A stretch of 64,000 bases of DNA, taken from the IMG/VR virus record IMGVR_UViG_3300029702_000002; one strand, 5' to 3'. The notes under the pieces are model-generated. The model ran no database searches. It saw only the letters and a list, made by a program, of their open reading frames with translations, and was not told the DNA's origin. The stretch is from a virus (Duplodnaviria > Heunggongvirae > Uroviricota > Caudoviricetes). Positions within the stretch are counted from its first letter, which is position 1. Every line of letters starts with the position of its first letter. Shown here piece after piece: positions 1 to 27,014 of the stretch. Both the position numbers and the translations under genes were made by a program.

Positions 1-908
1 TTACGTGATACCTCCTGGCTTATGCCTAATGCTGGGAAGTAACTACGCGCAGTACGGCGCAAATCTCGGGGTGTAAATGGCTCAAGCTCCATCAGTTCTG
101 GTCGTTCCAGAATACGACGTAATGCCTGGGCTATTGCCACTTTAGACATAGGAAGGTCTTTCCCGATTTTTTTATTCGAAGGCACGAGCCACTGGCTGTC
201 TTTACCATATTCGAACAACTCTTCAATACAAGTGCGCATTAATGAGCTTAAAGGCAGAGAATGCTCACGGGCAGATTTGTTCCTCTTGCCTTGATTCCAA
301 ACCCCACGCTTAAGATTGAACTCACTTTTTTTAGCCCGCAGTACTTCGTCAGGTCGTCTTGCGGATACAAGACATAGCCTGGCCGCCCATTTTGTACCAG
401 CACACACATTGAAGTAGTCCCATATATTCCAGAACACCCATACCTCTGCGTCGGTCAGCTTCCGCTCGCGAGGTGTGGGCTTTGCGCCACCGGCAACTTT
501 GTTAAGTGACATATCGTTTAACGGTGACACGTCTATCATCCCCTGGAAGGCGCACCAGCTAAGGAACTGCTTCATCAGAGAGAAAACGCGGCGGCCCATA
601 ACAATTTTGCCATCCAGTATTAGTGGGTTGACCAGTTGGTTCACCATGAACCTATTAATGTCACTTACTTTTACATCGGCAATGTGCGGCAAAACATGTA
701 TCAAAATACAATGAACAGCGATCTCTGGCCGACGTCTGGTTATCAGCAGAGATAAGCGAGTGAATAACATGAATGCGTCCGAGAATCTCATGTCATTGCT
801 GACCTGGGAGATCATAACGGCCTGCATTTGAGATGCTCTTTCGAGATACTCTATCGCCTCTTTTGAGGTGTTCTCCGCAGCGCGTGCTCTGTCAAAGCTA
901 TTTTTCAT
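1..908 (-). CDS. int: Tyrosine integrase (phage integrase family), partial; C-terminus outside window
   Basis: Minus-strand ORF from ATG at 908 with no stop in window; translation ends ...FTPRDLRRTARSYFPALGISQEV matching integrase box II region, with an upstream ARRPDEV...HSLPLS box I-like region. Confidence 0.6.
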   Translation of the reverse strand, partial: MKNSFDRARAAENTSKEAIEYLERASQMQAVMISQVSNDMRFSDAFMLFTRLSLLITRRRPEIAVHCILIHVLPHIADVKVSDINRFMVNQLVNPLILDGKIVMGRRVFSLMKQFLSWCAFQGMIDVSPLNDMSLNKVAGGAKPTPRERKLTDAEVWVFWNIWDYFNVCAGTKWAARLCLVSARRPDEVLRAKKSEFNLKRGVWNQGKRNKSAREHSLPLSSLMRTCIEELFEYGKDSQWLVPSNKKIGKDLPMSKVAIAQALRRILERPELMELEPFTPRDLRRTARSYFPALGISQEVSR

Positions 909-1041: not shown

Positions 1042-1158
1042 GGGCATTTTTTATAAAATCTGTGATTCTTCTCAGGATAAATTATCTAAACTAAAAATTG
1101 TGTTTTGTGTTGGCATCTGCTTGAATAGACGCATGTTTATTCAGATATGGAATAATCA

Positions 1159-1695
1159 GTGAACAACCAAATTCATTGGGACTACCCATTCTCAGAAGAA
1201 TTCGGCAGTGGGATGGTACACAGACAATTCACTGTGGGAAGCACTATTTATGCCGTTGGGTTTGAACAAATATTGACGATGGATGATTTCACACGTAAGG
1301 GAGTTGATATCCTAAATGTACATCCAACATTCCGGTTTCCTCTGAGTGGTGTATGGGGAGTGATTTTTGACGAAATTGACCCTGTAGAAATGGATTTCAA
1401 AGGATTTCGGCATATCCAACATCAAGGCTTGGCAGGTGGTCAAGTGCTTTTGAATGTTGCAAGTATAATCTTTGACCATTATACTGTTTGTAACGCAGGA
1501 GCTTATGTCTTCTCCGCCGCAGTCGACCATCAGCATTTACGCAGAACTGACTTGGTAGACATTTACTGTAAGATACTGGGTCTAAATGGAAAACGTAAAA
1601 GTAGATTGTTCGCCAATGGTTTTCCTGGATGGGAGGCATACTGTGATGTACCAACAGGAGGAAGAGGCTATGTCGTCACGACTGAAAGTTATTAA
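1159..1695 (+). CDS. Hypothetical protein (178 aa, GTG start)
   Basis: ORF with stop overlapping the next gene start; no recognisable motif. Confidence 0.45.
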   Translation: MNNQIHWDYPFSEEFGSGMVHRQFTVGSTIYAVGFEQILTMDDFTRKGVDILNVHPTFRFPLSGVWGVIFDEIDPVEMDFKGFRHIQHQGLAGGQVLLNVASIIFDHYTVCNAGAYVFSAAVDHQHLRRTDLVDIYCKILGLNGKRKSRLFANGFPGWEAYCDVPTGGRGYVVTTESY

Positions 1696-1897
1696 TTATT
1701 ACCCCACCTCTGCAGAACGTTTGAGCCTTGAAATGGGCGAAAGACTACAGAAAGCTGCTGGTCAGGATTTAAAGAACAAGTTGGGTTCAGGGGAAATTAA
1801 ACTGATTAACGGTAAATATGTAGGTGAAAGCCTGAAAGTTAATAGCACCTCTATGCTAAAAGCGCGGTTGCGTAAAGCGTATATCCCCGCTAAATGA
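1670..1897 (+). CDS. Hypothetical small protein (75 aa)
   Basis: ATG at 1670 preceded by AGGAGGAAGAGG ribosome-binding site; overlaps stop of upstream ORF; followed by hairpin terminator. Confidence 0.45.
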   Translation: MSSRLKVINYYPTSAERLSLEMGERLQKAAGQDLKNKLGSGEIKLINGKYVGESLKVNSTSMLKARLRKAYIPAK

Positions 1898-1926
1898 AAA
1901 GGCCTATATGGGCCTTTTCATTTTTA
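1897..1926. terminator. Bidirectional intrinsic terminator hairpin (AAAAGGCC-TATAT-GGGCCTTTT)
   Basis: GC stem flanked by A-run and T-run between convergent genes. Confidence 0.6.
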
Positions 1927-2169
1927 TAGTGTACTCACCAGCGCCGCAAATTCCGTATACCCCCCAATATGCTCTCCATGTATGAATATCTGAGGTATGG
2001 TATCCACTGGTTTACCAACCAGGTTGCTCAACGTTTCTTTGTTGATCCCCGCAGATGTAATATCTATATACTCATAATCACCGTAGCCATGTCCCTTTAG
2101 TTGCTTCGCCAGCTCGACCGCACGTTTGCAGTATGAGCAGTTATCTCGTCCGTAGATAGTGATCGTCAT
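1924..2169 (-). CDS. Glutaredoxin/NrdH-like redoxin (81 aa)
   Basis: N-terminal CSYC active-site motif (YGRDNCSYCKRA) and glutaredoxin-like length. Confidence 0.7.
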   Translation of the reverse strand: MTITIYGRDNCSYCKRAVELAKQLKGHGYGDYEYIDITSAGINKETLSNLVGKPVDTIPQIFIHGEHIGGYTEFAALVSTL

Positions 2170-2342
2170 AACTTAACAAATACCTTTATAAATATTGATT
2201 CGAACATATCAGACTATACTACAAACAGATTTTTTTGATAAGTATGTAGTAACTTATTGATTGACTAGTAAACAATTGAAGTGATTACGACAATAGATTA
2301 CAGTAAGGATTGCCTTGAAATGTACATTTTATAGAGGTTTTA

Positions 2343-3251
2343 ATGATTGGTAAGTTGTCTGATTCTTTGATTGAAAATAAATACAACGAATTTAGAGAAG
2401 AAATATCTTTACTTTTTGACTATTTAAATCAGATAAATGATACAACAAAGAAAAATATAAAACGTCTTCTTAAAGAAGTGGAGTATGCACAAAATCCAGA
2501 TACTATTATTAATATTAATGAAACTATTAAGATTAAGTGTGGCACAACGTTAGCTCGCCATTTATGTTCAAACCCATATACAGGTTCAACATTAGAGATA
2601 GGTAACAGCGCCATTGATTTAGAAGAAAAGATAAGATTGTGTAATACTTTGAAAAATAAACAATATCAGTGGGTTATTACTGAAGCCTATGAGTTACTGG
2701 AAGACTATATTGAGGCAATATATGTCTATACTGTATGTGTTCGAAATGATTTATGGTCCTCAAGTGATTTTGGTAAGGTTGAAGATGATGAAATTGGGAA
2801 AAGGGAAGTTTATTACAGATTATTAAAAGCAAAAAGTAACCCATCGAAAAAAATAACTAAAATTTTCAGAAATAAAATACCTGGCTTCAAAGAGATAGAA
2901 ACAAACAACAAGATTGGCAAAAACTATCGCTTTAACATCAAGCTAATTGAACTACTAAGACATACAATAGTACACAATAGTGGACGATTCAATGATACAG
3001 AAAAATTTATAAATAAGGTTTTAGATGAATCTGAAATAAACGGTAAGAAAAGAGTTATTGGAGAAAGAGCTGTTAGAAGTTACATTACTAAAGTGCAAGA
3101 AGATGATATTGTGATGCTCTTAGAAAGACCATCTGAAATTTTAGGTTCTTTTGGTGGGTATTTTAACAGAGCAAAATTTTTACTAAGTGATATTTTAGAA
3201 TACTCACTAATCATTAAAGAAGAACTAAAATCATATCTAGGCAATCATTAA
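2343..3251 (+). CDS. AT-rich hypothetical protein with HEPN-like Rx4H motif (LRHTIVHNSG); candidate abortive-infection protein
   Basis: 302-aa ORF with markedly lower GC than neighbours; R-x4-H motif in C-terminal half; own terminator. Confidence 0.5.
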   Translation: MIGKLSDSLIENKYNEFREEISLLFDYLNQINDTTKKNIKRLLKEVEYAQNPDTIININETIKIKCGTTLARHLCSNPYTGSTLEIGNSAIDLEEKIRLCNTLKNKQYQWVITEAYELLEDYIEAIYVYTVCVRNDLWSSSDFGKVEDDEIGKREVYYRLLKAKSNPSKKITKIFRNKIPGFKEIETNNKIGKNYRFNIKLIELLRHTIVHNSGRFNDTEKFINKVLDESEINGKKRVIGERAVRSYITKVQEDDIVMLLERPSEILGSFGGYFNRAKFLLSDILEYSLIIKEELKSYLGNH

Positions 3252-3429: not shown

Positions 3430-3516
3430 TGGCGGAGAGTAATGGAATCGAACCATCATCGCTTGCGCAATGGGACGGTTTTCAAGACCGCTTGAGCACC
3501 ATGCTCCCTACTCTCC
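3430..3516 (-). tRNA. tRNA-Ser (anticodon UGA), long variable arm, CCA encoded
   Basis: Manual cloverleaf: acceptor GGAGAGT/ACTCTCC, anticodon loop CUUGAAA, T-loop TTCGATT, 3' GCCA. Confidence 0.85.
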
Positions 3517-3729
3517 AATTGTTGTGGTGCCGGGTGCTTCCCGGTGTCCTTTGGCTGGTTATCCACCGTGGACGGAGCCAATAGTCATCACAAAGGATCA
3601 ATATAACCATTTCCCCGCGTGCGCTTAGCCGCATTCACCACAACGAAAAGAGCACTGTATGACGTTTGCACGGACTTACGCTTCAAACAGGGCAGTCTCG
3701 GCGGTTCTCAATGCTCTTTCCTGTTGTGT

Positions 3730-3805
3730 TGGTGCCGGTTAACGGATTCGAACCGCTGACATCCTGCTTACAAGGCAGGTGCTCTACCAACTGAGCTAAA
3801 CCGGC
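3730..3805 (-). tRNA. tRNA-Thr (anticodon UGU), CCA encoded
   Basis: Acceptor GCCGGTT/AACCGGC, D-arm TAGCTCAGTTGGTAGAGC, anticodon loop CUUGUAA, T-loop TTCGAAT. Confidence 0.9.
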
Positions 3806-3807
3806 AT

Positions 3808-3882
3808 TGGCGATGGTGGGTGGATTCGAACCACCGACCAGTTGGTTAACAGCCAACTGCTCTACCGCTGAGCTACACCATC
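3808..3882 (-). tRNA. tRNA-Asn (anticodon GUU), CCA encoded
   Basis: Acceptor GATGGTG/CACCATC, anticodon stem GTTGG/CCAAC with loop CUGUUAA, T-loop TTCGAAT; 2 nt from tRNA-Thr. Confidence 0.85.
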
Positions 3883-4952: not shown

Positions 4953-5101
4953 TTTCTAACCTTTGTTTCATGAACTACCCGATACACACGCTTTCCGATG
5001 CACAGTGTTTTGGTTTTAAGTTCCTGCTTAATTAAATCACGACAGATGCCGAAGCCGATAAGGAAGCCACCCATAAAAGCTAATGAGATGTATGGAATCA
5101 T
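4949..5101 (-). CDS. Small hydrophobic protein (50 aa, MIPYISLAFMGGFLIGFGIC...)
   Basis: Below ORF-track size cut-off; ATG overlaps upstream stop (ATGA) and own stop overlaps downstream start; AGGAG site 8 nt upstream. Confidence 0.4.
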   Translation of the reverse strand: MIPYISLAFMGGFLIGFGICRDLIKQELKTKTLCIGKRVYRVVHETKVRK

Positions 5102-5313
5102 ATTAACACTCCTGATTCTACTAATTGCTGTAGCAATACTTTCCCTTTATCAGTTAACTGGTAGTTGGCCGAACACCACGTTTCAGAAACGTTTGCAACC
5201 AACCCTAAACGCTCTAACTTAGCTCGCGTTTTAGGCTTCCAGTACTCAGGGAACTCCGGCCACTTACTTATTTCATGAAGCGTTTCTTTCTCCCGTTTAC
5301 TTAATACGATCAT
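5098..5313 (-). CDS. Hypothetical protein (71 aa)
   Basis: Translationally coupled to ligase stop. Confidence 0.5.
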   Translation of the reverse strand: MIVLSKREKETLHEISKWPEFPEYWKPKTRAKLERLGLVANVSETWCSANYQLTDKGKVLLQQLVESGVLI

Positions 5314-6632
5314 TCTTTATCTCCGATTCGATCTTCGGTATCGCGTAAGCAACGCGGCCATTTCAGTCGTGGGTGGCGTAAGCTGCCGTCCGGTGTTTTC
5401 TCGTGACAATGAACCTCAACAATACGACCACGGTACTTCTCTTTGTTGTTCCAGATCTCGTCCAGATATTTATGCTTAATACCGCTCGCACGAACGATGA
5501 CGCCGTTTTCAAGACGAATAACAATTTTTCCAAGTGTGTTGGCAAAACCAGAGTCCGGGTCGCCCGGCTCAAAGTCGATAATTTCACCATCTTCTGAATC
5601 TTCGTCTTTTAACTTCCACCAGCTGCGGGTACGTTTAAACTCGTAAACAGAGTTCGGATCTTTGCCCATCTCCCCTTCTTCGTTATCGTCCAGGCGTTTC
5701 ATGAAGCGTTCGATGAAGTCTTCGTGGCTATGGATGATATAGAACGGATGCAGGTGAATGTCTTGTGTGTAGCCTTCACTGCGATCGTTTTTGAACAACG
5801 CCACCAGCATAGCCAGGCGCTCTTTCAGCTTCATACCTGTCTTTGCATACTCTTTGGATTTAGCCTGTGCTCGCCATTCCGGTAGGAAGAAGTCGAAAAC
5901 ATGATAAATAGCGCCAATTGCCTGCACGTTCTTTTTGCGCAATGCAGATACGGACTGGTTAAATGAACCGGCAGTTCCTTCACCATCGAAGAAGATGTGT
6001 TTGTGGCCTGAAAGTTTGCCTAATTCGAGCATGGCTGGCTTTAGGTGATCGAGAGACGTGATTGGATTACCAGTACGAGAAAGGAAGTTAACCTCTTCCT
6101 CGTCAACAATAACCTCGCAAATTACTCGCAAACCATCGAGCTTAAGACTGCCAATCATCGGCCATTTTGCTTTAGGATTTGGCTTGAAGGGGTATTTGTC
6201 GCCTTTTTCTTTATACGGTGACGCCAGCTGCACCTCGAATTTCGGAATGGGATTTTCAAAAACCTTGTTGCATAGGCTAATCCCAACGCCAGCTTTCGGG
6301 TCTTTTAAGAGGAAACGACGGAACACGTCCTGCCCATCGGCGCACATTGACGCCACGATAGACTCAACAGCTGCTATTGCTGCGTTCCCCGTTAGCTCGC
6401 GAGAGGCCAGCTTATTCAGTACATCAATGGCTTTTTCGTCACTTGGGATGGACTCACTAAGCGGCTCTGCCACTTTGTATTTCTTTACCCCAAAACGGAT
6501 GAAAGGGTTGAGCATCAATGAAACCATGCTTTGTTCAAAGTCATCCATGTTGGCCAATGCCTCTTTTTTTGCATTGGTTCCCATAGCTTTCATTTCGTCC
6601 AGCTTATGCTTAAGTGCGATCAACTTTTTCAT
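5310..6632 (-). CDS. ATP-dependent DNA ligase
   Basis: Adenylation motif I KLDGLR, FDGE motif and WWKLK motif V in 440-aa ORF. Confidence 0.8.
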   Translation of the reverse strand: MKKLIALKHKLDEMKAMGTNAKKEALANMDDFEQSMVSLMLNPFIRFGVKKYKVAEPLSESIPSDEKAIDVLNKLASRELTGNAAIAAVESIVASMCADGQDVFRRFLLKDPKAGVGISLCNKVFENPIPKFEVQLASPYKEKGDKYPFKPNPKAKWPMIGSLKLDGLRVICEVIVDEEEVNFLSRTGNPITSLDHLKPAMLELGKLSGHKHIFFDGEGTAGSFNQSVSALRKKNVQAIGAIYHVFDFFLPEWRAQAKSKEYAKTGMKLKERLAMLVALFKNDRSEGYTQDIHLHPFYIIHSHEDFIERFMKRLDDNEEGEMGKDPNSVYEFKRTRSWWKLKDEDSEDGEIIDFEPGDPDSGFANTLGKIVIRLENGVIVRASGIKHKYLDEIWNNKEKYRGRIVEVHCHEKTPDGSLRHPRLKWPRCLRDTEDRIGDKE

Positions 6633-7111
6633 TGTTGTTTTGCCTCCATATGTTGATCGATTTGCTCATGTGTTTTTTTTGTTGTTTCTTCAAGCAACGC
6701 CGCATACACGTCAGTGATCGCTGTTTGTGATGTGGCGCTCTTCTTAACCATGCTATTAATCGTTACACTGTCACGTTTTCGTTTTATAGTTCTGGCTTGT
6801 TTATTCCGTTCTTCAACCTCCTTAATGAGCGCGGTCATATCTTCGAAATACAGAGATTCTCCTTTACGAATCTCTTCAACCATCATTTTTAACGCCTTGC
6901 ATTTGCCTGCTTTGATAGCGGTTGCGCACGACTGGAATGAAGTTCGAGGAAGACGGTTTTCTTTGAAGGCAAGAATGGTGTGCTGGCAAACGGAGTAGCT
7001 GCAATATGCCGACTCACCGTTTATCTTTACTTCCTCACAACGAAGTGAATAACCATTATTTCCTGAAATAGAGGGGATTTTTGACAAATCAGCTTTCACA
7101 ACTACCGCCAT
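6629..7111 (-). CDS. Hypothetical protein (160 aa, Cys-rich N-terminus)
   Basis: ORF overlapping ligase start by 4 nt. Confidence 0.5.
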   Translation of the reverse strand: MAVVVKADLSKIPSISGNNGYSLRCEEVKINGESAYCSYSVCQHTILAFKENRLPRTSFQSCATAIKAGKCKALKMMVEEIRKGESLYFEDMTALIKEVEERNKQARTIKRKRDSVTINSMVKKSATSQTAITDVYAALLEETTKKTHEQIDQHMEAKQQ

Positions 7112-7166
7112 AAATAATCTTGTACTTACCTATCGTTATTTGCGTAAAAAACGACGCGCGGAGAGA

Positions 7167-7943
7167 TTACCAACTTCCCCAGCTAATCATCTTGCGCTGA
7201 TCGCTTTCTAAGCGATAAGGGGCAAGAAGCTCTGTGACATGATTGGTGGCGTATGATTTAGCCTCTTGCTTAATCATCGGTAATTCGTTAGCAATCCTGA
7301 CCATCTTCCCAGCAAATTCCGCCATTACGCCATCACAAGCCTTCCCCGCATCAACAACGATATGCACAAGATCCAACTGGCTTTTGCACATATCCCAAAG
7401 AGACGCGTATTCACTCTCTCTGATTACATTTACGGCACTATTAGCCCCTTTATTAATCAAAACTTCCAACAGATTTTTCGGGGTAACGAAATCTGCTTTC
7501 AGAGATAATGTCTTTTCACCACTTATCGAACGCAAGTACTCTTCGTAGTTATTCTTCATCAAACCGCTGCTGCGCATTGCTAGAACTGCTTCTTGAATGG
7601 CCGCTTCAATAGTTTCGTCGTTTGAAAGACAAAAAACGGTATTTGTGTAGATCACTCTGCCATCAAGCCATGCTCCAACCTGCACTTTAAGACTGAGCGG
7701 GTTTTCTTTGCTAATAAAAACAACTAATGCAGAACGCCGTGCACAAGAAGGTTCGCCCCATACGTGTAACTCAACTTTCAGATAAGGCAACCCTGGTAGC
7801 GGGATCTCGTCCATACGAGCAGCGATATGATTCATTGCTGTATTGACGGCCTTTCCAATGATGTCTAGTCGACTGCCCTCGCTGATTTCTAAACCTGTTT
7901 TATCAATGATGTCACAGGCCAATTTCTGAATTTCGTCTTTCAT
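7167..7943 (-). CDS. Hypothetical protein (258 aa)
   Basis: First gene of leftward operon 7943 to 4662. Confidence 0.55.
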   Translation of the reverse strand: MKDEIQKLACDIIDKTGLEISEGSRLDIIGKAVNTAMNHIAARMDEIPLPGLPYLKVELHVWGEPSCARRSALVVFISKENPLSLKVQVGAWLDGRVIYTNTVFCLSNDETIEAAIQEAVLAMRSSGLMKNNYEEYLRSISGEKTLSLKADFVTPKNLLEVLINKGANSAVNVIRESEYASLWDMCKSQLDLVHIVVDAGKACDGVMAEFAGKMVRIANELPMIKQEAKSYATNHVTELLAPYRLESDQRKMISWGSW

Positions 7944-8068
7944 ACCAACTCCTAGCTAACAGATGAAAGTATTCTTACAAAAAACTAAGTATGTATCTAC
8001 TTATCATTTTAGGCGCAATAGTTCCCTATACGAAGATGCCGGGCTTATAGTCTGCCCGGCATTCACCA

Positions 8069-8482
8069 TTAATGAGCTACAGCCTCACTGTTGCACATCT
8101 TTCTGTAGACCTGCTTATAACGCTGTAAGTCATGAGGATCATTAGGTGCCAACGACTTCGATAGGATTTTGTATACCACCCCTTTCGAAAACATGCCCTT
8201 TGGCTTCATTTCGAGTTCAACAACATATGAGTGATAGCCCACGTATGCACCAAAGCCATTTTTGGCGTTTAATTCACCACACACAAAGCCTGTCACACTC
8301 CCATCGTCATGATCAGTCCTGACAAACTTATCTTTCCTAAACATCACCGACGTGGGATCTTTCATGTCATCCGCAATGGCCTGTTGGCCCAGAGTAATAG
8401 CCTTCTCGTCTGTAGGCTTACACCCAACTAATGCAAACAAAGACAATAAAGCACCTGTTAAAATCAGCTTCTTTTTGCTCAT
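8069..8482 (-). CDS. Lipoprotein (137 aa); candidate superinfection-exclusion/lysogenic conversion protein
   Basis: Signal peptide with lipobox LVGC; isolated gene with own hairpin. Confidence 0.6.
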   Translation of the reverse strand: MSKKKLILTGALLSLFALVGCKPTDEKAITLGQQAIADDMKDPTSVMFRKDKFVRTDHDDGSVTGFVCGELNAKNGFGAYVGYHSYVVELEMKPKGMFSKGVVYKILSKSLAPNDPHDLQRYKQVYRKMCNSEAVAH

Positions 8483-8714
8483 TTTGACTTCCCTTTATTT
8501 ATATTTATCGTAGGTATTAGTTAACCAAAACACGAGCAGTGTCACAATAATTCCATAACTTATTATTTCCACTAGTGATTAATACCACATCAACTTTACG
8601 GTTCATAAATTAAATTATCAAAGCTGACAGATTAACTAAATTTAAGTACCCTTTTCGCACACTTGACGCTTGCCGCGTCTAAACTGTTCATCCTATATCA
8701 ACAGAATAAAAAAC

Positions 8715-9860
8715 ATGAAATACATAAAATCTTCTTCGTTGCTGGCATTAACTTTGCTTTTTAGCTCTGGATTCGTTAACGCAGACAATAAACAAACGTT
8801 GATAGAAGCCGCTACCGCAGGTGATACCGCAGCACAAAGTGAGTTAGGGACAAATTATTTGGATGGTGTCAATGGTTTTGATAAGGATGTAGTTGAGGCA
8901 AAGAAGTGGATTGATCTCGCTGCAGAAAAGGGAGATAAAGTAGCATATTATGCACTTGGAGTTATGTACACATTTGGCGAGGGTGTAGATAAAGACCTAA
9001 ATAAAGCTGTTGAGTACTACAAACTTGCGGGGGATGCTCGTGAAGGTAGAGCCTACAACAATCTTGGTGCTATTTATCAAAAGGGGATGCTTGGTAAAGT
9101 AGATCATGCACTCGCCATTAAATACTTCAAACTAGCCTCTGATGTCGGGTATGTTAAAGCAACTTCAGTTCTTGGGGCGTATTACCAATATGGTAAAGGC
9201 GTTAAAAAGAATTATAAAAAGGCTTTTACTTATTACAAAAAGGCGGCAGACCAAGGCAGTTCAGAAGCTATGATAGGATTAGGAATACTATACGATGATG
9301 GGTTAGGCGTTAAACGCAATGATGCAGAAGCAGTTAAGTGGTATAAAAAGGCAGCGGAACTTGGAAACGCCGACGCCATAACCAATCTTGGCATTATGTA
9401 TGAGAATGGGGAAGGTGTAAAAAAGGACTATAAAAAAGCAGCCGACCTTTATCAGACTGCTTGCAATAAAGGAGAAAAAAGAGGCTGTGAATACATTGCT
9501 GAACTGAAAGAAAGCGGAAAATATCGAGTATCTGATTCCAAAGCCAAATCAAAATCAGATGTACAGCGACTTATTGCTAAATCCATTGATAAAGGCGTTA
9601 ACGCAACATTTACCTGGCAGGGTGATGATGCCGTCTTCACCGCTAATGATGGCAAAGTTGACTGCACCTTCTTGAAGGATTTTTCAGAGAAAGGAGGCAA
9701 TCTGGCTACCTCGTTTGTTTGCACCGATAACGTTCAAATCATCCTGAAGCAATTCAGAGATACCAAGAATGCCTACCTCGCGGTAATGACTGACAACTTC
9801 AACACAGAAGTTAAATCATTTTCGGTCAATGTTTACGTGACTAATACTGGTTCAAACTAA
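8715..9860 (+). CDS. Secreted Sel1-repeat (TPR-like) protein
   Basis: Signal peptide MKYIKSSSLLALTLLFSSGFVNA then at least 6 Sel1-type repeats (G-x-x-Y/N-x-x-G-x-G-V-x-K-D/N-x-x-x-A-x-x-W/Y-Y-K-x-A-A); start taken at ATG 8715 inside longer ORF 8670. Confidence 0.7.
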   Translation: MKYIKSSSLLALTLLFSSGFVNADNKQTLIEAATAGDTAAQSELGTNYLDGVNGFDKDVVEAKKWIDLAAEKGDKVAYYALGVMYTFGEGVDKDLNKAVEYYKLAGDAREGRAYNNLGAIYQKGMLGKVDHALAIKYFKLASDVGYVKATSVLGAYYQYGKGVKKNYKKAFTYYKKAADQGSSEAMIGLGILYDDGLGVKRNDAEAVKWYKKAAELGNADAITNLGIMYENGEGVKKDYKKAADLYQTACNKGEKRGCEYIAELKESGKYRVSDSKAKSKSDVQRLIAKSIDKGVNATFTWQGDDAVFTANDGKVDCTFLKDFSEKGGNLATSFVCTDNVQIILKQFRDTKNAYLAVMTDNFNTEVKSFSVNVYVTNTGSN

Positions 9861-11105
9861 TGCTGCTATACCTTTTACCTTGCTTAAAAGTTCAAGCTGT
9901 CGTGAGTAAGGTTTTGCGCAATAGTAGGCTTTGATAATCTGCCCCGGTGTCGCATCGCCGGGGTCGAGTCCTTCCTCGCCCAAACACGCAACTTTGACAT
10001 TAAGACCAATACTTGTGAGTCGCCTGGCTGCGGCCATAGTGTTGCGTATAGCTTGCTTTTCACTATCCCACATCATGATCACATTACGTAATCCACGCGC
10101 CTTGAGCGTCAGGAACGCGCCCAGCTGATCTTCTGCATCCTGAGTGGTGTTGCCAGATAGATGCATCCCGAACGTTCCTATTGGTTCCACGTAATCACGT
10201 AATGTTTCTTCGTCAAAAATAGCTCGTTTGACCCCCATAACATCGAACGCCCCCTCACAGACAACTACCGTCTGTTTGCCGACTGCATTATGGCCGTTGT
10301 AGAGAAACTTACCTGAAGCTGGAAGCTGCATAGGAAAGAGGTAGCGACGTTCTGCTGTACCGGTAATGTCTCGTCCCTGAAATGTCTTCATTACCCCATC
10401 CAGATCGTAAACCGGTATGAGTATTCGCATATCGAATATCTGTCCTTTTACCTGATCTGTATACGGATCTACATAGGCGTGTTTGCCTTCGACGCAGTAT
10501 CGTAGGTCAAAATACTTTGCCATTTCAGGCGATATGTTTCGTTCAACCAGATAGTCTGGAAGACGGCCATCTATAGGCAGTTCGTAATGACGAGGGAGGG
10601 CAACTGGTCCCTCTAACTCGACTGTGCTTGCAAGCACTATCTCTTCTTTCTTTGGTGTCCATCCCTGAGAAAGAAGGGCGTTCTGCACATATTCTTCGAA
10701 CTGTCGCCGTGATTTACCGCTGTAGTGCTTGAGGAACACCAGCTTATTAAATTGTATTTCTTCAGGATGGTCGCCAGCGAAACATTTACCCACACCACTG
10801 GTCAGATTGAAATATACCTTCCAGTTGGAGCTGCCGCATACCGGACACTCCTTGATATTCACTTCACGACCGCGAGCACTCACGCCTCCGCGCCGATAAA
10901 TGATACCTTCAGTGTCCAACCATTGTTCAAAATCTAATTCGGTAATTAGCTCTTTCAGCTCGCTCACGATAATTCCACTTTTAACAGGCAATATTGTGAC
11001 CAACCTAAATGTTGATATAACATAAAGGCTCATGTGTTTTTCTTTTGTGGTTTGGCAAAAGAAAAGTTGTTTCACCAATGAATCAAGCGTGGAGGCGTTC
11101 TCCAC
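9852..11105 (-). CDS. DNA primase (zinc-ribbon + TOPRIM)
   Basis: CPVCGSSNWKVY...C zinc-binding motif and TOPRIM VVVCEGAFDVMG; true start probably internal (GTG near 10967 with GGA site or ATG 11033). Confidence 0.8.
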   Translation of the reverse strand: MENASTLDSLVKQLFFCQTTKEKHMSLYVISTFRLVTILPVKSGIIVSELKELITELDFEQWLDTEGIIYRRGGVSARGREVNIKECPVCGSSNWKVYFNLTSGVGKCFAGDHPEEIQFNKLVFLKHYSGKSRRQFEEYVQNALLSQGWTPKKEEIVLASTVELEGPVALPRHYELPIDGRLPDYLVERNISPEMAKYFDLRYCVEGKHAYVDPYTDQVKGQIFDMRILIPVYDLDGVMKTFQGRDITGTAERRYLFPMQLPASGKFLYNGHNAVGKQTVVVCEGAFDVMGVKRAIFDEETLRDYVEPIGTFGMHLSGNTTQDAEDQLGAFLTLKARGLRNVIMMWDSEKQAIRNTMAAARRLTSIGLNVKVACLGEEGLDPGDATPGQIIKAYYCAKPYSRQLELLSKVKGIAALV

Positions 11106-11114
11106 GCTTATTTT

Positions 11115-12455
11115 TTAGGTAACGTCTAAGATTCGCTCAATGAAGCGCATTTGTTCGAGGTTTTGTTTAACGCGAATGCTGATCCCTCCCTGCTGGTTAC
11201 GTGAACCAGCAAAGTAGAGACGAGCCTCTCCTTTCGCTTCTTCTTCTTCGGTTTTGTTGATCGTTATTACCAGGTCAGCAATACGTACTTTTTCGATGTT
11301 GTCGGCAGCGTGCATCATTGTGGCAACTTCTGACGCGCCACCTTCACGGTTTGTCTGCGATGCCGTGATCCCAGCAACGTTATGCTTGTCATAAAGAGCA
11401 CGTAAATCGGTGTAGATACTACGAATGTTGGCGCGATCATCACGAAGGTCATAACTGGCACGCATCAAATCTGCGTAGTCGACAACAACCATGTCAGGCA
11501 CCATGCCGTTGGCTTTCATGCTGTTAAGCATACGGTCCAGATCTGCCGGTGACATACTTCCTGACGGACGCTCAACCACCCACAAACTACCAATCCCCTT
11601 CGTGGCTCCCAACTCTGCCAACTTACGATGAACCTCATCGCGCCGTTCCACCAGCTTGGACATTTCTGTCTCCGACAATCTTGCATCAAAACGGTCGGAT
11701 AAAATGGTGGTGTGAACCTCCAGCGAGAGATACAGAACATTGTAGCCAGCAAGCGTTGCGTTTATGGAAAACTCACCCATTGCGGTCGATTTGCCGGATT
11801 TAGCGAACCCCATGAAGAGCACCATTTCACGCTTCGCCCAGCCTTTTTGGTACAGCAACCTATCGAGCAGAGGGAGTCCAGTTGTAATGCTGTTTGGCAC
11901 ATACTCCTCTGAAGCCTCATATTCACGCGCTTTCAATCGCTCACTTGCGGAGGTGTAGTAGTCATAGATTCCGGTCGCTTCGTTCGAGCCTATCTGCTGA
12001 ACCTTGGCCATGATTGCCATCGCCCCCTGAAAGTCGCCCTTCTCTTTCAGTTCAGCAGCTTTAATCAGAGCATCATCAAACGCTACACTTTTTGCGAATG
12101 TGGATACCTGGTCAACCATGTACGAGGTATCAGACAATTTTTCTGCAAGGATGCGCTTAAACGCAGCAACAACATCCGGGAAGAGTTCCTCACGGATGGT
12201 CTTATCGCGTTTCGCGCGCTTAAGCATATCCAGAATCGCAGATGAAGAAGGCGCGCTCTTGTACATACGGTAATAGCCCGAAACCATATTAACCAATATG
12301 GCATTGGCCGCATTGGCAAATTGGCTAGGCACAACCAGATCTCCCGCACGAGTAAGAAACTCGTGATCACGACAAAAATATGCCGTCAGTCTGTTCTGGA
12401 AATCTTCATCAAACTCTTCGGACAGCCCGCGTCCTGTATGGCAAAGTTCGGTCAT
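11115..12455 (-). CDS. Replicative DNA helicase (DnaB-like)
   Basis: Walker A GFAKSGKST, Walker B VVVDYADLM, DnaB C-terminal domain architecture. Confidence 0.85.
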   Translation of the reverse strand: MTELCHTGRGLSEEFDEDFQNRLTAYFCRDHEFLTRAGDLVVPSQFANAANAILVNMVSGYYRMYKSAPSSSAILDMLKRAKRDKTIREELFPDVVAAFKRILAEKLSDTSYMVDQVSTFAKSVAFDDALIKAAELKEKGDFQGAMAIMAKVQQIGSNEATGIYDYYTSASERLKAREYEASEEYVPNSITTGLPLLDRLLYQKGWAKREMVLFMGFAKSGKSTAMGEFSINATLAGYNVLYLSLEVHTTILSDRFDARLSETEMSKLVERRDEVHRKLAELGATKGIGSLWVVERPSGSMSPADLDRMLNSMKANGMVPDMVVVDYADLMRASYDLRDDRANIRSIYTDLRALYDKHNVAGITASQTNREGGASEVATMMHAADNIEKVRIADLVITINKTEEEEAKGEARLYFAGSRNQQGGISIRVKQNLEQMRFIERILDVT

Positions 12456-12498
12456 GTGCTTTCCTTTGTTTTTTAAACAAATTGTTTTCTAGTATTAG

Positions 12499-13248
12499 TT
12501 AATTAGATAGGGGATCAATAAACCGCCGTGCTTCTTCCAGTTCTTCTGGAAAGTGGGCGGAAATAAGGCGCTCTGGAACGATTTCCATTAGCCAGATAGC
12601 GGAGAAAATTGCGCGTATGCGCTTGCTGCGAGGTATGGTGCGCAAACGCTCCAGAATCCACTCAAAATAGCTTTCCTGAATCGGGTTGAACTGCATGTCT
12701 CCCATATGCTTAAAGCTAACAAGAGAGTCATCCAGACGGGTTGTTGCGCGTCTGGCTAATTTCTCTTCAAATATCTCAATCAGTTCTGGCTGCCACAAAT
12801 GCTGTGGGCGCGGCAGCTTGTCCCACAGCCGTCGTGCAGCTGCGGAAAGAACGGTGGAGATAAAGTAGTCGTATGAGCAGCAATAGCGATCCGCAAACTG
12901 GCGTGCTTTCCATAGCGACGTTTTGTTGGCAGTCGACAACTCCTGATAAGGCAGGCGTTTTAACCCGGTGGTGAACGGAGCTGTTTCAAAGTGTTCGCGA
13001 CCGTGCGTCAGCATGATATTTGAGTACTGACGTTTGTATGCCTCCGTAAAAAGACAGGTGGCCATGAGAGGATGCATGTCGCGGTAATCAAACCACTTCG
13101 TCTCGAAGAGTTCAGCCTCGTCTTTACAGCGCGACAAACCAATGTTTTCAGCGACCCACTTGTCCATAACAGCGGTATTCCACTCTGTCATGAAGTCGTA
13201 CTGGTCGTTGTCGATGGTATCGAAAAAGATTTGGCTCATGTGGCTCAC
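12499..13248 (-). CDS. Hypothetical protein (249 aa), possibly replication-associated
   Basis: ORF immediately upstream of helicase in same orientation. Confidence 0.55.
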   Translation of the reverse strand: MSHMSQIFFDTIDNDQYDFMTEWNTAVMDKWVAENIGLSRCKDEAELFETKWFDYRDMHPLMATCLFTEAYKRQYSNIMLTHGREHFETAPFTTGLKRLPYQELSTANKTSLWKARQFADRYCCSYDYFISTVLSAAARRLWDKLPRPQHLWQPELIEIFEEKLARRATTRLDDSLVSFKHMGDMQFNPIQESYFEWILERLRTIPRSKRIRAIFSAIWLMEIVPERLISAHFPEELEEARRFIDPLSN

Positions 13249-13355
13249 CTGGTAGGTAGTTACTTACTTATCACAATGAGCGGATGATAGCGACTGGTGG
13301 CAGTTTTTGGAAGTGGAAACGGAAGGGAGTTGTTCTGGTGGTGTCTTTTAAAAGA

Positions 13356-13410
13356 CCTGCTTCCGTATATATTTAATAAGTTACTTATTATTTATATATA
13401 CAGAAGCAGG
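13356..13410. repeat. 55-bp AT-rich near-palindrome, copy 1 (identical to 44652-44706)
   Basis: CCTGCTTCCGTATATATTTAATAAGTTACTTATTATTTATATATACAGAAGCAGG read in both places. Confidence 0.9.
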
Positions 13411-13521
13411 CATAACTTGTCGTCTTAGACGCCCAGAAGCTCTACACTTTGAGCCTGTTAAATTGATTAAAAACTTATGTGTAAAATAGAACGCATTAGT
13501 CAGTAGCAAAGAGATGCAATA

Positions 13522-14289
13522 ATGGACGATTTATCGGTATACGCGAGATCATTGGATAAGGCTAAATACTATGTTTACTGTCTCTATGATACAGAAGACA
13601 AGATGAAAAGACCGTTTTACATAGGAAAAGGCAAATCGACTCGTTGTCTCGATCACATCAAGTATCCCGATGACTCTCCCAAATCCATGCGGATCAAAGA
13701 ACTTTTGGCTAATAAAAAATTAGGCATAGATATACTTCGTCATGGTATGGATGAAACCACAGCCAAACTTGTTGAGGCGACATGCATCGACCTTATGGGG
13801 GTCGGAGAGCTTACGAATAAGGTACGAGGAAGTGGTTCCATGATGGGCAGAATATCACTGGACGCCTACCATCACTTAGTGCTGCAAGAGGAAACTGAAA
13901 TTGCTCCTGAGCACGCCGGTCTTGCCTTCCTGCTAAACAGCACCTACAAGTCAGGAATGTCCGCTCTGGCATTATATGAAGCTACGCGTGGCGTATGGGC
14001 AAAGGTTCCAAGAGACGAGAATCTCAAATATGCCTACGCTACATATGGTGGGCTGATAATGGAAGTTTATCAGATTGAATGCTGGGTCAAAGCCGGTTCT
14101 CAGCAGTACTTTACAAGGGATATAGCTCTTGGCCCCGACACAAAACGTTATGAATTTGTTGGCAGAATAGCCGATGAGCATATTAGAAAACTGTATGTAG
14201 GCAAATTAATCAAGAAGCCACCAAGCTACGGTAGCCCTTTTGTGAAGGTTGGGGTGGTTAGGACTGAACATAGTGTTAGCGCGGCATAA
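13522..14289 (+). CDS. GIY-YIG nuclease domain protein (free-standing, 255 aa)
   Basis: N-terminal YYVYCLYD...PFYIGKGKSTRCLDH matches GIY-YIG catalytic motif; lone plus-strand gene in minus-strand region. Confidence 0.7.
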   Translation: MDDLSVYARSLDKAKYYVYCLYDTEDKMKRPFYIGKGKSTRCLDHIKYPDDSPKSMRIKELLANKKLGIDILRHGMDETTAKLVEATCIDLMGVGELTNKVRGSGSMMGRISLDAYHHLVLQEETEIAPEHAGLAFLLNSTYKSGMSALALYEATRGVWAKVPRDENLKYAYATYGGLIMEVYQIECWVKAGSQQYFTRDIALGPDTKRYEFVGRIADEHIRKLYVGKLIKKPPSYGSPFVKVGVVRTEHSVSAA

Positions 14290-14341
14290 AGCTGACACTG
14301 TAGTTATGCATTGGCGCAATGTACGCGCCAATGCATGATTT

Positions 14342-14701
14342 TTAACCTTTCTTCATCAACTCTCGTTTGATTTCATCGGTACGCATCGTGACATCGGCAG
14401 CGGTGATCGCCTCATTCAATTTCACGATGTCCTCGATTTCCTGCGGTGACTTCTCTGCCAGATGGAAAATGGCTGCTCGAATCACGTCAGAACGAGTGAA
14501 CTTCTCGAAGCGAGGGATGAACTTCATCATCTCCAGCAGTTCGAAGTATTCGTCCTCCAGTGACATTGTGCGGCTTTTAATTTTCTCTTTGCCACGAGTC
14601 GGGCGTCCCTGTGGTCTGACTGGTTGGCGCAAAGGAGTTGTGTTCTTAGCCGGTGCATCAGGCTCTTTGCGCTTTGCTAGGTCACCCATTTTCATGGACA
14701 T
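14342..14701 (-). CDS. ParG-like small partition protein (basic N-terminal tail, putative ribbon-helix-helix C-terminus)
   Basis: 119-aa ORF translationally coupled (ATGA) to ParA-like gene. Confidence 0.5.
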   Translation of the reverse strand: MSMKMGDLAKRKEPDAPAKNTTPLRQPVRPQGRPTRGKEKIKSRTMSLEDEYFELLEMMKFIPRFEKFTRSDVIRAAIFHLAEKSPQEIEDIVKLNEAITAADVTMRTDEIKRELMKKG

Positions 14702-15369
14702 TATTCTTCTTCCTCCAGACTCAACAGATAATCTACAAATTCTTCAAACTCGGCTTCCGCCTTTTTGTCGCGCTCGCTACCGGTCATTTCAAAGATAGAA
14801 CGACCAGACTCTTCCGCATCATCATAGACGTTGCGGTTATATAGATTGACTGGCGCAGACTCGATTCCAAACGTCTCAACAATCTCTTTAGCCGCCAGAA
14901 TGCGAGACACTTGTGATGGCAAAGCCGGGCACTGGTTCATGACCGCGCGGACCTTCACTTTATCGTTTACATTGCGAACATTGTCGATAATAGGATCGAT
15001 GTCACGTAAAGATTTCAAATCACGACGCTTAGGACGCAGCGGGATAATGATAACGTCAGCCATCAGCATCGCTTGTCGCTGAATTTCGGAGTCGAAGCCA
15101 CCAGCATCTACCACTACAAACTCAGCTCTACCCTGAAGCGATTTTAGGTGCTTAATGATGTCATCCTGAACGTATGCAAAAGGAATCAGCTCCAGGTCTT
15201 CGTTCTGTCGACGGTCTTCACACCAGCTCGTTGTCGTGCGCTGAATATCTATATCGGTAATATAAACCTTCTTCTTCTTTTTGACTTTCAGGCAAACGGC
15301 AATTTGCTGGGCAACGGTGGATTTGCCAGGCCCGCCCTTTGTGCCGCCAACCACAAAGATCTTGGTCAT
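14701..15369 (-). CDS. ParA/MinD-family partition ATPase
   Basis: Deviant Walker A KIFVVGGTKGGPGKST at N-terminus, 222 aa. Confidence 0.85.
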   Translation of the reverse strand: MTKIFVVGGTKGGPGKSTVAQQIAVCLKVKKKKKVYITDIDIQRTTTSWCEDRRQNEDLELIPFAYVQDDIIKHLKSLQGRAEFVVVDAGGFDSEIQRQAMLMADVIIIPLRPKRRDLKSLRDIDPIIDNVRNVNDKVKVRAVMNQCPALPSQVSRILAAKEIVETFGIESAPVNLYNRNVYDDAEESGRSIFEMTGSERDKKAEAEFEEFVDYLLSLEEEE

Positions 15370-15687
15370 TGGAGAGTTCCCTTTGCGTATATAATTATCG
15401 TCTGAAACAACTTGTTTTCTTATATGTGATATAGCCTAAATGCCTACGGCTGCGGTGTAAAGGTTAAATGGTAGGTTGTGATTAACAATTGGCAAACATA
15501 GCTTGTATTTGTCTGTTGAAAAAAGTAACAATGACCTCTATATTACAAGTACGGTGATATGCCGTACACAATTTGATAATGCACACGTAATGGGCTATAG
15601 CCTTTTAAAGTAATTTTTGAGTCGAAAACTCAGTTTGAACAGAGGAGATTGATGGCCTTCCTACATCACGGCCATCAGGAGGAATAC

Positions 15688-15957
15688 ATGTCAGCACTAA
15701 AAAAGCAGCGCATCGATTTGAGATTAACCGATGACGATAAAAGCATCATCGAGGAAGCTGCCGCAATGTCTAACCAGAGCATTACTCAGTTTATGGTTAG
15801 CAGTGCATCTGAACGTGCCGTGAAAGTTATAGAGCAACACCGTAGACTAGTTCTGAATGAAGAATCCTGGAATCTGGTTATGGACGCTATAAGCAATCCT
15901 CCGGCACCGAACGACAAGCTGAAACGAGCTGCTGATCGTCTGAAAAGCATGGAGTAG
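15688..15957 (+). CDS. DUF1778/TacA-like antitoxin
   Basis: Small ORF immediately upstream of GNAT toxin; ATG 15688 preceded by CAGGAGGAA. Confidence 0.7.
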   Translation: MSALKKQRIDLRLTDDDKSIIEEAAAMSNQSITQFMVSSASERAVKVIEQHRRLVLNEESWNLVMDAISNPPAPNDKLKRAADRLKSME

Positions 15958-15964
15958 TTTACTC

Positions 15965-16486
15965 GTGGATAATATAAAGATAGAAATTTTCTCTGGAGAG
16001 AAAGATTATGATTTGAATGGTTTTGATTGCGGTGAAGAATCACTAAATGCCTTTTTAACCAACCACTTAAAAAGGCAGCATGAGGGAAAAATTCTTCGCG
16101 CTTATGTGCTTTGCACGAAAGAAGGCAGACCAAAAGTGTTAGGGTATTACACTTTGTCAGGTAGCTGCTTTGAAAAGGAGTCCTTACCTTCAAGAAGCCA
16201 GCAAAAGAAGGTACCTTATCGGAATGTTCCAAGTGTTACTTTGGGTAGGCTGGCTTTGGACAAGTCCCTTCAAGGTCAAGGATTTGGCTCAATGCTTGTA
16301 ACACATGCAATGCGCGTTGTGTACAATGCATCTCTTGCTGTAGGCATTCATGGACTTTTCGTTGAGGCGTTAAATGACAAAGCCAAGGCGTTTTATAAAA
16401 GTTTAGACTTTATCCAGCTGGTTGGTAACAACGAGCGTTCTTTGTTCTATCCTACAAAATCTATCGAAAAATTGTTCGAAGAATAA
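15965..16486 (+). CDS. GNAT acetyltransferase toxin (TacT/AtaT-like)
   Basis: 173-aa GNAT fold with LQGQGFGSMLV acetyl-CoA motif, 8 nt after antitoxin stop; GTG start. Confidence 0.75.
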   Translation: MDNIKIEIFSGEKDYDLNGFDCGEESLNAFLTNHLKRQHEGKILRAYVLCTKEGRPKVLGYYTLSGSCFEKESLPSRSQQKKVPYRNVPSVTLGRLALDKSLQGQGFGSMLVTHAMRVVYNASLAVGIHGLFVEALNDKAKAFYKSLDFIQLVGNNERSLFYPTKSIEKLFEE

Positions 16487-16517
16487 TGTACTCCCCTCAA
16501 GTGAGGGGAACTTCGCA

Positions 16518-16733
16518 TCACCAACCGCAAACTCTCTCTCCCATCGTATTGTGAAAAAGGATTTGGCGTTCGGTTTCTTCGGTCATCACATCATTATTGC
16601 TGATATAGATAGGCCCAGCTCCATCGCAGAACAATACGCTGGCGGTTTGTGGTTTAATGACGCACCCACTTATCATACAACTCACGATGAACGGCAGAAG
16701 CATCTTTCTGACGTATTTTATTGCTCGTCTCAT
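16518..16733 (-). CDS. Outer-membrane spanin (Rz1-like lipoprotein), overlapping i-spanin
   Basis: Signal peptide with lipobox ISGC; ORF overlaps 3' end of 16654-16905 in another frame. Confidence 0.5.
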   Translation of the reverse strand: MRRAIKYVRKMLLPFIVSCMISGCVIKPQTASVLFCDGAGPIYISNNDVMTEETERQILFHNTMGERVCGW

Positions 16734-16905
16734 TCACCACTTCCACTGTGCTTTGAAGTCGTTTTCTGTCTTCCTGTTTTGCCTTCTCTTCCATTGCTCG
16801 TCGCGCCGCATTCCCGCCCATCGTGTAAGCGCCGACAAGAACGAAAAGAACGGCAGCCAGCGTAATCAAAGCAACTTTTAGCTTTGTCATCAGGCTGCCT
16901 AGCAT
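16654..16905 (-). CDS. Inner-membrane spanin (Rz-like)
   Basis: N-terminal transmembrane segment then charged coiled-coil-like region; directly downstream of endolysin. Confidence 0.5.
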   Translation of the reverse strand: MLGSLMTKLKVALITLAAVLFVLVGAYTMGGNAARRAMEEKAKQEDRKRLQSTVEVVNETSNKIRQKDASAVHRELYDKWVRH

Positions 16906-16906
16906 A

Positions 16907-17626: not shown

Positions 17627-17948
17627 TTTTTACGCCATACGCGGCTAACCCCAAAAGCAGTGCGGTAATAATGAACGACGTTATTTTAGAAACAATGCCG
17701 CCAAAGAACCCACTTGAGATGGAATCTAACCGGTTAAGGAGTTTGTCCAGATTGGAGTGTTGAATACTATGTTGCGCCGGGGTCATATCACCAAAGTAGG
17801 TTTTCAGCTGATCATTGACCTCCTGGCCAATTTCTTCACGTAGCTCTTTACCTAATTTGCCAACAACCTCCCGAGCAACGATCGCGGCAATACGCTCAAC
17901 TTGCTCTGTTGTAACGCCCGCCATCTCGTTCGACATGTTTTCCTCCAT
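17613..17948 (-). CDS. Holin-like membrane protein (single C-terminal TM)
   Basis: Position upstream of endolysin; C-terminal ITSFIITALLLGLAAYGV segment. Confidence 0.4.
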   Translation of the reverse strand: MEENMSNEMAGVTTEQVERIAAIVAREVVGKLGKELREEIGQEVNDQLKTYFGDMTPAQHSIQHSNLDKLLNRLDSISSGFFGGIVSKITSFIITALLLGLAAYGVKSGLQ

Positions 17949-22176: not shown

Positions 22177-22269
22177 GTTGAATATGCTCCTTGATTTGGC
22201 GGGTTATCCTTGCCCGCCATTAAGTAAATACTTACCTATTTTTACCGATATAAAATTTTTTTTCCACCA

Positions 22270-27003: not shown

Positions 27004-27014
27004 AAAATCCTTGT

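Follow-up and report, generated by a model that had tools for sequence, protein, structure and literature searches.

The 64,000-nucleotide stretch of viral DNA analysed here (IMG/VR record IMGVR_UViG_3300029702_000002; called the window throughout) encodes a replicative helicase, a primase and an ATP-dependent DNA ligase within positions 5310-12455. We conclude that the window most likely comes from a temperate siphovirus that is kept in Escherichia coli as a low-copy circular plasmid, and that the genes flagged in this span form the conserved primosome-ligase operon of its lineage. We put the probability of this reading at about 0.88. The mixture of genes is genuinely unusual, yet it has already been described and classified: lambda-like tails combined with a self-contained T4-like replication kit are a known hallmark of the SSU5/pHCM2/Cyrano phage-plasmids. 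The discovery value of the combination is accordingly small, and the useful outcome is the right label, that of a Cyranovirus phage-plasmid instead of an integrated mosaic prophage.

Identity and classification of the element

The whole window aligns locally with positions 17901-81913 of CP057834.1 (pRHB13-C13_2), a circular E. coli plasmid of 108,954 bp; the alignment contains 7 mismatches and 4 gaps, for an identity of 99.97%. A search of PLSDB with window positions 5000-25000 returned 966 plasmid records, 919 of which are typed as non-mobilizable. This segment is matched over its full length at 100% identity by three E. coli plasmids of 108,954 bp that came from pig faeces, CP057834.1 among them. 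Among annotated phages, the best megablast match to the same 20 kb was Escherichia phage Cyrano (OV696614; 108 kb), with 96.8% identity and 81% query coverage, followed by Salmonella phage SSU5, with 81% identity and 45% coverage. NCBI taxonomy places Cyrano in the genus Cyranovirus and SSU5 in the genus Suquintavirus, both within the subfamily Santaclaravirinae.

In a local comparison with the whole Cyrano (pLF82) genome, the complete plasmid is 97.2% identical across 88.1% of its length, so that identity x coverage is 0.856; for the window by itself the figure is 0.850. The thresholds customarily used by the International Committee on Taxonomy of Viruses for identity multiplied by aligned fraction over the whole genome are about 70% for a genus and 95% for a species. 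The value of 0.856 lies above the genus threshold, so on nucleotide similarity the source element is a member of Cyranovirus, within the Santaclaravirinae and the SSU5-like phage-plasmids. Because the same value lies below 95%, the element is probably another species of this genus than Cyrano. The original prediction had offered, as one of two readings, a poorly characterised temperate lineage. A separate temperate lineage is indeed what we found, but it has a named genus and subfamily. The comparison with the complete Cyrano genome shows close similarity along the full length to a temperate genus that is already classified, which is the outcome that the original prediction had named as refuting it.

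The plasmid and Cyrano agree in the order of their genes for replication, partition, lysis, tail and head, and they have in common the same RepA, ParA, an integrase, a glutaredoxin, three tRNAs and a metG-apbC gene pair. They differ in approximately 12% of the sequence, located in cargo islands.

Plasmid lifestyle

The plasmid CP057834.1 is recorded as circular and non-mobilizable and is typed as rep_cluster_488. It encodes a RepA initiator of the Rep3 family (Rep3_N domain; positions 1-1095 of the plasmid record). Within the window we identified a ParA-type partition ATPase at 14701-15369 on the minus strand (Pfam MipZ, AAA_31, CbiA and ParA; phrog_164, 4.2e-51) and two ParB-like proteins at 46556-47922. 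The 64-kb window includes no chromosomal flank. Among 5426 complete E. coli genomes, 254 carry the 7.1-kb flagged span, and plasmids account for 293 of the 296 places where it occurs; one of the three chromosomal places is a stretch of the primase gene that covers 13% of the span. The element is a phage-plasmid, and not an integrated prophage; the original prediction had spoken of a prophage. SSU5-like phage-plasmids are common, with about 5% of complete E. coli genomes carrying the module.

Cyrano, the characterised relative, is a phage-plasmid with a copy number of 5.5 per cell; ciprofloxacin induces it 39-fold, and it forms siphovirus particles (PMC9928086). In the normalised transcriptome of the LF82 lysogen, RepA reaches 133, the repressor 96, ParA 50 and the integrase 49.5, and the operon genes have the values helicase 21, primase 10.6, ligase 5.9 and, for the gene lying upstream of the helicase, 6.2 (PMC9928086, supplementary table). 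The Cyrano repressor is expressed 10-fold over local background (PMC9928086); as its value is 96, the replisome genes are near background in the lysogen. Low lysogenic expression, inducibility and virion production are thus taken from the literature on this 97%-identical relative, and gene identities, plasmid location, synteny and motif conservation were established directly here. More broadly, the SSU5 supercommunity forms the largest group of related phage-plasmids and is mostly IncFIB; its tail genes are common to lambdoid phages, and its persistent genes include tyrosine recombinases (PMC7969092). A 2026 preprint about copy number in phage-plasmids deals with an unrelated 49-kb family and was left aside.

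Three tRNA genes (Ser-TGA, Thr-TGT and Asn-GTT) are located at 3430-3882 on the minus strand, approximately 2.5 kb from the tyrosine recombinase gene, and are shared with Cyrano; SSU5 and Klebsiella pJN2-26 have tRNA-Asn alone at the equivalent position. Chromosomal integration by way of the integrase and these nearby tRNA genes was considered and rejected, given the 3 chromosomal places out of 296 in complete genomes.

Two small features adjoin the partition gene. The gene following parA (14342-14701, minus strand) is annotated in Cyrano as a RelE/ParE toxin and has no Pfam match here; it could instead encode the centromere-binding partner of a type Ib ParA. A pair comprising a TacA-like antitoxin and a GNAT toxin adjoins the par region at 15649-16486 on the plus strand.

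The helicase-primase-ligase operon

The operon comprises, in order, a conserved 249-amino-acid protein, the helicase, the primase, a variable cargo slot with a gene on the opposite strand, a 258-amino-acid protein, a 160-amino-acid protein and the ligase. The ligase, primase and DnaB-like helicase that had been reported between 5310 and 12455 are all encoded there, on the minus strand; two genes named along with them, those for the SF2 helicase and the glutaredoxin, lie outside the span. The span also contains genes that the original prediction had passed over, namely those for a Sel1-repeat protein and a lipoprotein and two conserved genes at 6629-7111 and 7167-7943.

The helicase (11115-12455, minus strand) belongs to the DnaB family (Pfam DnaB_C, 3.9e-13; phrog_19, 1.2e-87) and resembles T4 gp41, which is its best solved relative (8dtp/8due, about 1e-11). 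The primase is of the DnaG type, with an N-terminal zinc motif and a TOPRIM domain, and is encoded separately from the helicase, at 9852-10967 (or to 11105) on the minus strand (phrog_47, 3.6e-63; TIGR01391, 3.4e-9). Its Pfam matches to DNAG_N and Toprim_2 fall slightly below the curated cut-offs, and the zinc-binding motif reads CPVC-x18-CFAGDH in the translated sequence. Sequence searches of the PDB related it to DnaG (5guj, 7e-6) and weakly to T4 gp61 (8gao, 1.7e-3). The ATP-dependent DNA ligase (5310-6632, minus strand) is of the T4 type (Pfam DNA_ligase_A_M, 5.8e-13; phrog_114, 8.3e-126), and the solved structures nearest to it in a PDB sequence search are T4 and cyanobacterial T4-type ligases, with 6rau at 1.8e-26 and T4 ligase (6dt1) at 6.2e-25. 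The remark that this gene set is typical of virulent phages was fair, since the nearest solved homologues are T4 gp41, T4-type ligases and, weakly, T4 gp61.

The remaining members of the operon are all on the minus strand. The 249-amino-acid, all-alpha protein (12499-13248) is encoded immediately upstream of the helicase gene, just outside the flagged span, and is a candidate helicase-associated factor. The 258-amino-acid protein (7167-7943) lies between primase and ligase, and the stop codon of the gene for the 160-amino-acid protein (6629-7111; phrog_5055, 5.1e-85) overlaps the start of the ligase gene. None of these three proteins had a match in sequence searches of PDB, Pfam, NCBIfam and PADLOC. 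AlphaFold2 models of the 249- and 258-amino-acid proteins are confident, with predicted local distance difference test scores of 88 and 85.5, respectively, and a fold search with both models found no convincing structural neighbour.

The same operon order occurs in Cyrano, SSU5 and Klebsiella pJN2-26, and the module and its gene order are kept across members from Escherichia, Salmonella and Klebsiella at 80-97% identity. The genes for the ligase, primase, helicase and 249-amino-acid protein have a G+C content of 0.47-0.50, the level of the tail and head genes, and the small genes at 6629-7111 and 7167-7943 are slightly lower, at 0.42-0.44. No frameshifts were seen in the replication genes. Because its order is conserved in SSU5 and pJN2-26 and its G+C content is near that of the structural genes, the module does not appear to be a recent mosaic graft; judged by order and composition, it is a fixed feature of the lineage.

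The operon belongs to a larger set of replication and recombination genes, a nearly complete phage-encoded kit that is spread around the genome. Two further members of the kit, the UvsW-like SF2 helicase and the glutaredoxin, are encoded inside the window. Beyond the window, the annotations of the plasmid and of Cyrano include a DNA polymerase III (Pol III) alpha subunit, a 3'-5' epsilon-like exonuclease, RNase H, NrdAB, thymidylate synthase and dihydrofolate reductase. The annotation of Cyrano additionally lists a gp32-like single-stranded DNA-binding protein, UvsY, a RecA/UvsX-like protein, SbcCD, RuvC and polynucleotide kinase.

Alternative explanations and a proposed division of labour

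Three other explanations deserve consideration. In the reading drawn from the original prediction, the DNA would be an integrated lambdoid prophage that gained a foreign, virulent-type replication module by recent mosaic recombination. The tail-tip genes do belong to lambda-derived families, a tyrosine recombinase is present, and T4 proteins are the closest matches of the helicase, ligase and primase. However, all 64 kb lie in a circular plasmid without a chromosomal flank, nearly all E. coli copies are plasmid-borne, and the module is conserved in three host genera with a G+C content near that of the structural genes. Moreover, the genome measures 109 kb and not 40-60 kb, and the recombinase is less than 30% identical to canonical phage integrases. 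We regard this explanation as highly improbable. The second explanation is a domesticated or defective plasmid, that is, a former phage-plasmid that no longer makes virions and whose replication genes would now serve plasmid upkeep or be decaying. A Klebsiella SSU5-like plasmid that was predicted to be an intact prophage is reported to have behaved otherwise (PMC8969562), and inducibility is known from the relative Cyrano and not from the present strain. Against such decay, the large structural open reading frames are intact and have the lengths found in Cyrano, the replication genes lack frameshifts, and Cyrano, at 97% identity, is inducible and forms particles (PMC9928086). This makes a defective plasmid improbable in our view.

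It is also unlikely that the helicase-primase-ligase operon mainly serves the plasmid state, freeing the element from host DnaB and DnaG, rather than lytic growth. Such a role would fit with the presence of the element's own Pol III alpha subunit and epsilon-like exonuclease, and with helicase transcripts approximately twofold over local background in Cyrano lysogens. Yet transcripts of the primase, of the ligase and of the gene upstream of the helicase do not exceed background in these lysogens, in which RepA is about 14-fold above it, and Rep3-type initiators normally recruit the host replisome.

We favour a division of labour between maintenance and lytic growth in a temperate phage-plasmid. 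In the plasmid state, the host replisome would replicate the element from its Rep3-family RepA initiator, ParA would segregate the copies, and the phage replisome genes, including those of the flagged operon, would be kept nearly silent. Upon induction by DNA damage, the phage replisome genes would be turned on and the 109-kb genome would be amplified for packaging. A palindrome over the predicted start site of the helicase promoter, which also precedes many other operons, suggests that one shared regulator could be involved. The division is supported by the Cyrano lysogen, since its replisome genes are near background and RepA is expressed. We infer that RepA probably sustains the plasmid and the phage replisome probably serves lytic growth, and that the palindrome may take part in the switch between them.

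Several points weigh against the temperate phage-plasmid reading and the division of labour within it. Induction and virions have been demonstrated for the relative Cyrano, not for the present plasmid. We know of no genetic test of the split between RepA and the phage replisome in any SSU5-like element. In the Cyrano lysogen the helicase is slightly over local background (21 versus about 10), and some use in the plasmid state is possible. One site of the palindromic motif lies ahead of parA, a gene expressed in lysogens, which is a poor fit to a simple operator of a lysogeny repressor. Finally, the 249-, 258- and 160-amino-acid proteins gained no function from sequence or fold searches.

A dispersed palindromic motif

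We identified a palindrome, AAACAAATTGTTT, at 12475-12487, 20 nucleotides upstream of the helicase ATG and preceded by conserved TTGATC and TAATAC-like hexamers resembling -35 and -10 elements. The corresponding motif, AAACAANTTGTTT, occurs with at most one mismatch at 12 sites in the window (12475, 15405, 44575, 44600, 53715, 54200, 54950, 55853, 56337, 57520, 59134 and 59185), compared with 0.5 expected by chance. There are 18 sites in the whole plasmid and 18 in Cyrano. Most of the mapped sites are located 10-66 nucleotides upstream of a start codon. Those in the window precede the helicase gene, parA (site 15405), terS and a series of small genes between 53.7 and 59.2 kb, and sites in Cyrano also precede a cobT-like gene and nrdB. 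The helicase site keeps its position in Cyrano, SSU5 and pJN2-26, and the parA site does so in SSU5 and pJN2-26; with the present element, conserved positions are seen in four elements.

The placement of AAACAANTTGTTT resembles that of an operator lying over the transcription start and common to many operons, and we consider the motif a candidate shared operator or promoter element. Tentatively, a single dimeric regulator might bind the approximately 18 promoter-proximal sites and switch the T4-like replisome together with other operons in a genome-wide circuit, although we hold this to be somewhat less than an even chance. If true, the circuit would join the helicase-primase-ligase operon, parA, the cobT-like gene, nrdB, terS and the small early genes, and would be so far undescribed. 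Candidates for the regulator are a helix-turn-helix protein encoded at 17324-17710 of the plasmid record and the putative regulator at 50244-50846 of the window. In phage P1, the operators of the C1 repressor are dispersed around the genome, and one of them controls the DnaB analogue ban; the dispersed palindrome of the present element may be compared with them by analogy. In the literature searched, we found no description of an operator or repressor site in SSU5-like elements, this motif included, and nothing relevant in the way of a description of the pHCM2 replication genes. The motif, together with the defence-gene slots around the replication operon, provides leads for research on the regulation of phage-plasmids and on cargo exchange among them.

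A second, longer palindrome is found in the same region. This AT-rich sequence of 55 bp lies upstream of the helicase operon at 13356-13410, and an identical copy lies upstream of terS at 44652-44706, the two forming a perfect direct repeat with a predicted DNA fold of -14.1 kcal/mol (z -4.9). It is found in the same place in SSU5, and Cyrano has three copies, every one of them directly 3' of a gene. The repeat probably forms a hairpin between operons that serves as a terminator or insulator. The linear Cyrano record starts inside the copy upstream of terS, and the palindrome may have a role in origin function or packaging. We judged a packaging end less likely because the other copies sit just 3' of unrelated genes, as is typical of terminator hairpins, and the start of the record is perhaps arbitrary.

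Variable slots and islands

The slot inside the operon holds a 1.9-kb block (8005-9876) without a match in Cyrano. It encodes a Sel1-repeat protein on the plus strand, opposite to the operon (8670-9860; Pfam Sel1, 1.1e-52), and a small lipoprotein on the minus strand (8069-8482; phrog_2320, 1.9e-39), absent from Cyrano, with the lipobox LVGC visible in its translation. The slot is empty in Cyrano and contains mutually unrelated genes in SSU5 and pJN2-26. Of the 254 module-bearing E. coli genomes, 54 cover at least 80% of the span and hence have the Sel1/lipoprotein block.

A second variable slot (13421-14343) is located between the par operon and the replication operon. Here it encodes a GIY-YIG protein similar to the defence protein PD-T4-3 (13522-14289, plus strand; PADLOC PD-T4-3, 1.3e-23; Pfam LEM-3_GIY-YIG, 5.5e-7), and in both Cyrano and SSU5 it contains a PDC-S31/DUF2971 gene. 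This slot looks like an exchange point for defence genes. Taken together, the two fixed slots beside and inside the operon may be exchange points for defence or moron genes, including PD-T4-3-like, PDC-S31/DUF2971, Sel1-repeat and unrelated genes.

Further islands that differ from Cyrano are found at 1053-3251, 49802-51155 and 57865-58820, and the segments without a Cyrano match include islands of lower G+C content (0.29-0.44). As the G+C content of the replication module is close to that of the structural genes, and low G+C is found among segments that Cyrano lacks, only the small cargo islands appear to be mosaic.

Two genes in these islands may be mentioned separately. An AT-rich island at 2170-3251 (G+C 0.29), without a match in Cyrano, encodes a 302-amino-acid protein (2343-3251, plus strand) whose sole match is phrog_35492. 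A 200-amino-acid protein encoded at 50244-50846 on the plus strand matches Pfam Flag1_repress (FljA, the phase-1 flagellin repressor; 4.8e-83) and phrog_1444 (transcriptional repressor), in a region that is merely 77.5% identical to Cyrano. From these matches, it might be a silencer of host flagellin or a regulator of the phage.

Comparison with known systems

The SSU5/pHCM2 group shares with the window the helicase-primase-slot-ligase operon, ParA, the lysis cassette and the lambda-like tail genes. In SSU5, the palindromic motif is as far from the helicase start codon and from the parA start codon as it is in the window. SSU5 differs in its lower nucleotide identity and genus, as given above, and in the absence of an integrase-glutaredoxin-repressor block at the corresponding place.

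T4 proteins are among the nearest solved relatives of the helicase, the ligase and, weakly, the primase, and according to the Cyrano annotation the wider genome matches a functional set of T4 that includes gp32, UvsW/X/Y, gp46/47, NrdAB, Td and Frd. Unlike in T4, the annotated polymerase of the element is a DnaE-type Pol III alpha subunit with a 3'-5' exonuclease, and not a family-B gp43. No homologues of gp43, gp45 or gp44 were found in the annotation of the plasmid or Cyrano, for which no dedicated profile search was made.

Lambdoid phages share with the element the tail-tip genes M, L, K, I and J, but they integrate into the chromosome, whereas the element is plasmid-borne and has its own helicase, primase, ligase and polymerase. 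The annotation of the plasmid contains no replication genes of the lambda O/P type, which rely on the helicase and primase of the host.

Phage P1, the model phage-plasmid, likewise persists as a plasmid prophage at low copy number. It resembles the present element in having a Rep initiator and a partition system, along with toxin-antitoxin genes and a tyrosine recombinase. It differs in being a myovirus and in lacking a polymerase, primase and ligase set of its own, and we found no sequence relationship between P1 and the module.

Other phage genes

The superfamily 2 (SF2) DNA helicase is encoded at 47987-49546 on the plus strand, 35 kb outside the flagged coordinates, and is of the UvsW/XPB type (Pfam DEAD, ResIII and Helicase_C; phrog_16, 7.5e-94). 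It matches XPB (7e-13) and T4 UvsW (2oca, 2.4e-8) in the PDB, and its Cyrano homologue is annotated as a UvsW helicase. The glutaredoxin gene, also outside the span, is located at 1924-2169 on the minus strand (Pfam Glutaredoxin, 1.1e-11) and is annotated as a GrxA family glutaredoxin in the plasmid record.

The integrase and the lambda-like tail genes J, K, L and M that had been reported are real by their Pfam matches and lie beyond the 5310-12455 span. The integrase, a tyrosine recombinase (1-908, minus strand; Pfam Phage_integrase, 1.9e-8, and Phage_int_M), is cut by the window edge: the window contains the first 302 of 367 codons, and the complete gene occupies 17705-18808 of the plasmid record. 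A role of this recombinase in multimer resolution is plausible. The tail-tip genes M, L, K, I and J are encoded at 22270-29502 on the minus strand, and the Cyrano annotation names all five. Pfam matches were found for gpM (Phage_min_tail, 4e-34), gpL (Phage_tail_L, 7e-97), gpK (NlpC/P60 and JAB) and gpJ (FNIII-A_GpJ, Phage-tail_3 and Phage_Tail_Tip). The gene annotated as I (27015-27608), which had also been reported, has no Pfam match and is named by annotation.

The terminase, portal, capsid, tape measure, M/L/K/I/J, tail fibre, holin, endolysin and spanin genes are all present and intact. The large structural open reading frames equal those of Cyrano in length, with 1257 nucleotides for terL, 1575 for portal, 876 for major capsid, about 4580 for tape measure and about 4730 for J; the tail fibre has 1345 amino acids.

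The window also encodes a full methionyl-tRNA synthetase gene, metG, with a divergent apbC/mrp gene, at 59282-62573 (G+C 0.51), and the pair is present in Cyrano (CYRAN_99/100). The synthetase of the plasmid is about 99% identical in protein sequence to that of E. coli (PDB 1f4l), and the DNA is about 91% identical to the chromosomal metG-apbC genes. The difference between these two values suggests that the capture of metG-apbC was not recent and that the pair has been under strong purifying selection. Next to it, a 129-amino-acid protein (62611-63000, minus strand) consists of a Peptidase_S24 domain only (UmuD-like; phrog_811), without a DNA-binding domain, and is annotated in Cyrano as a LexA-like peptidase.

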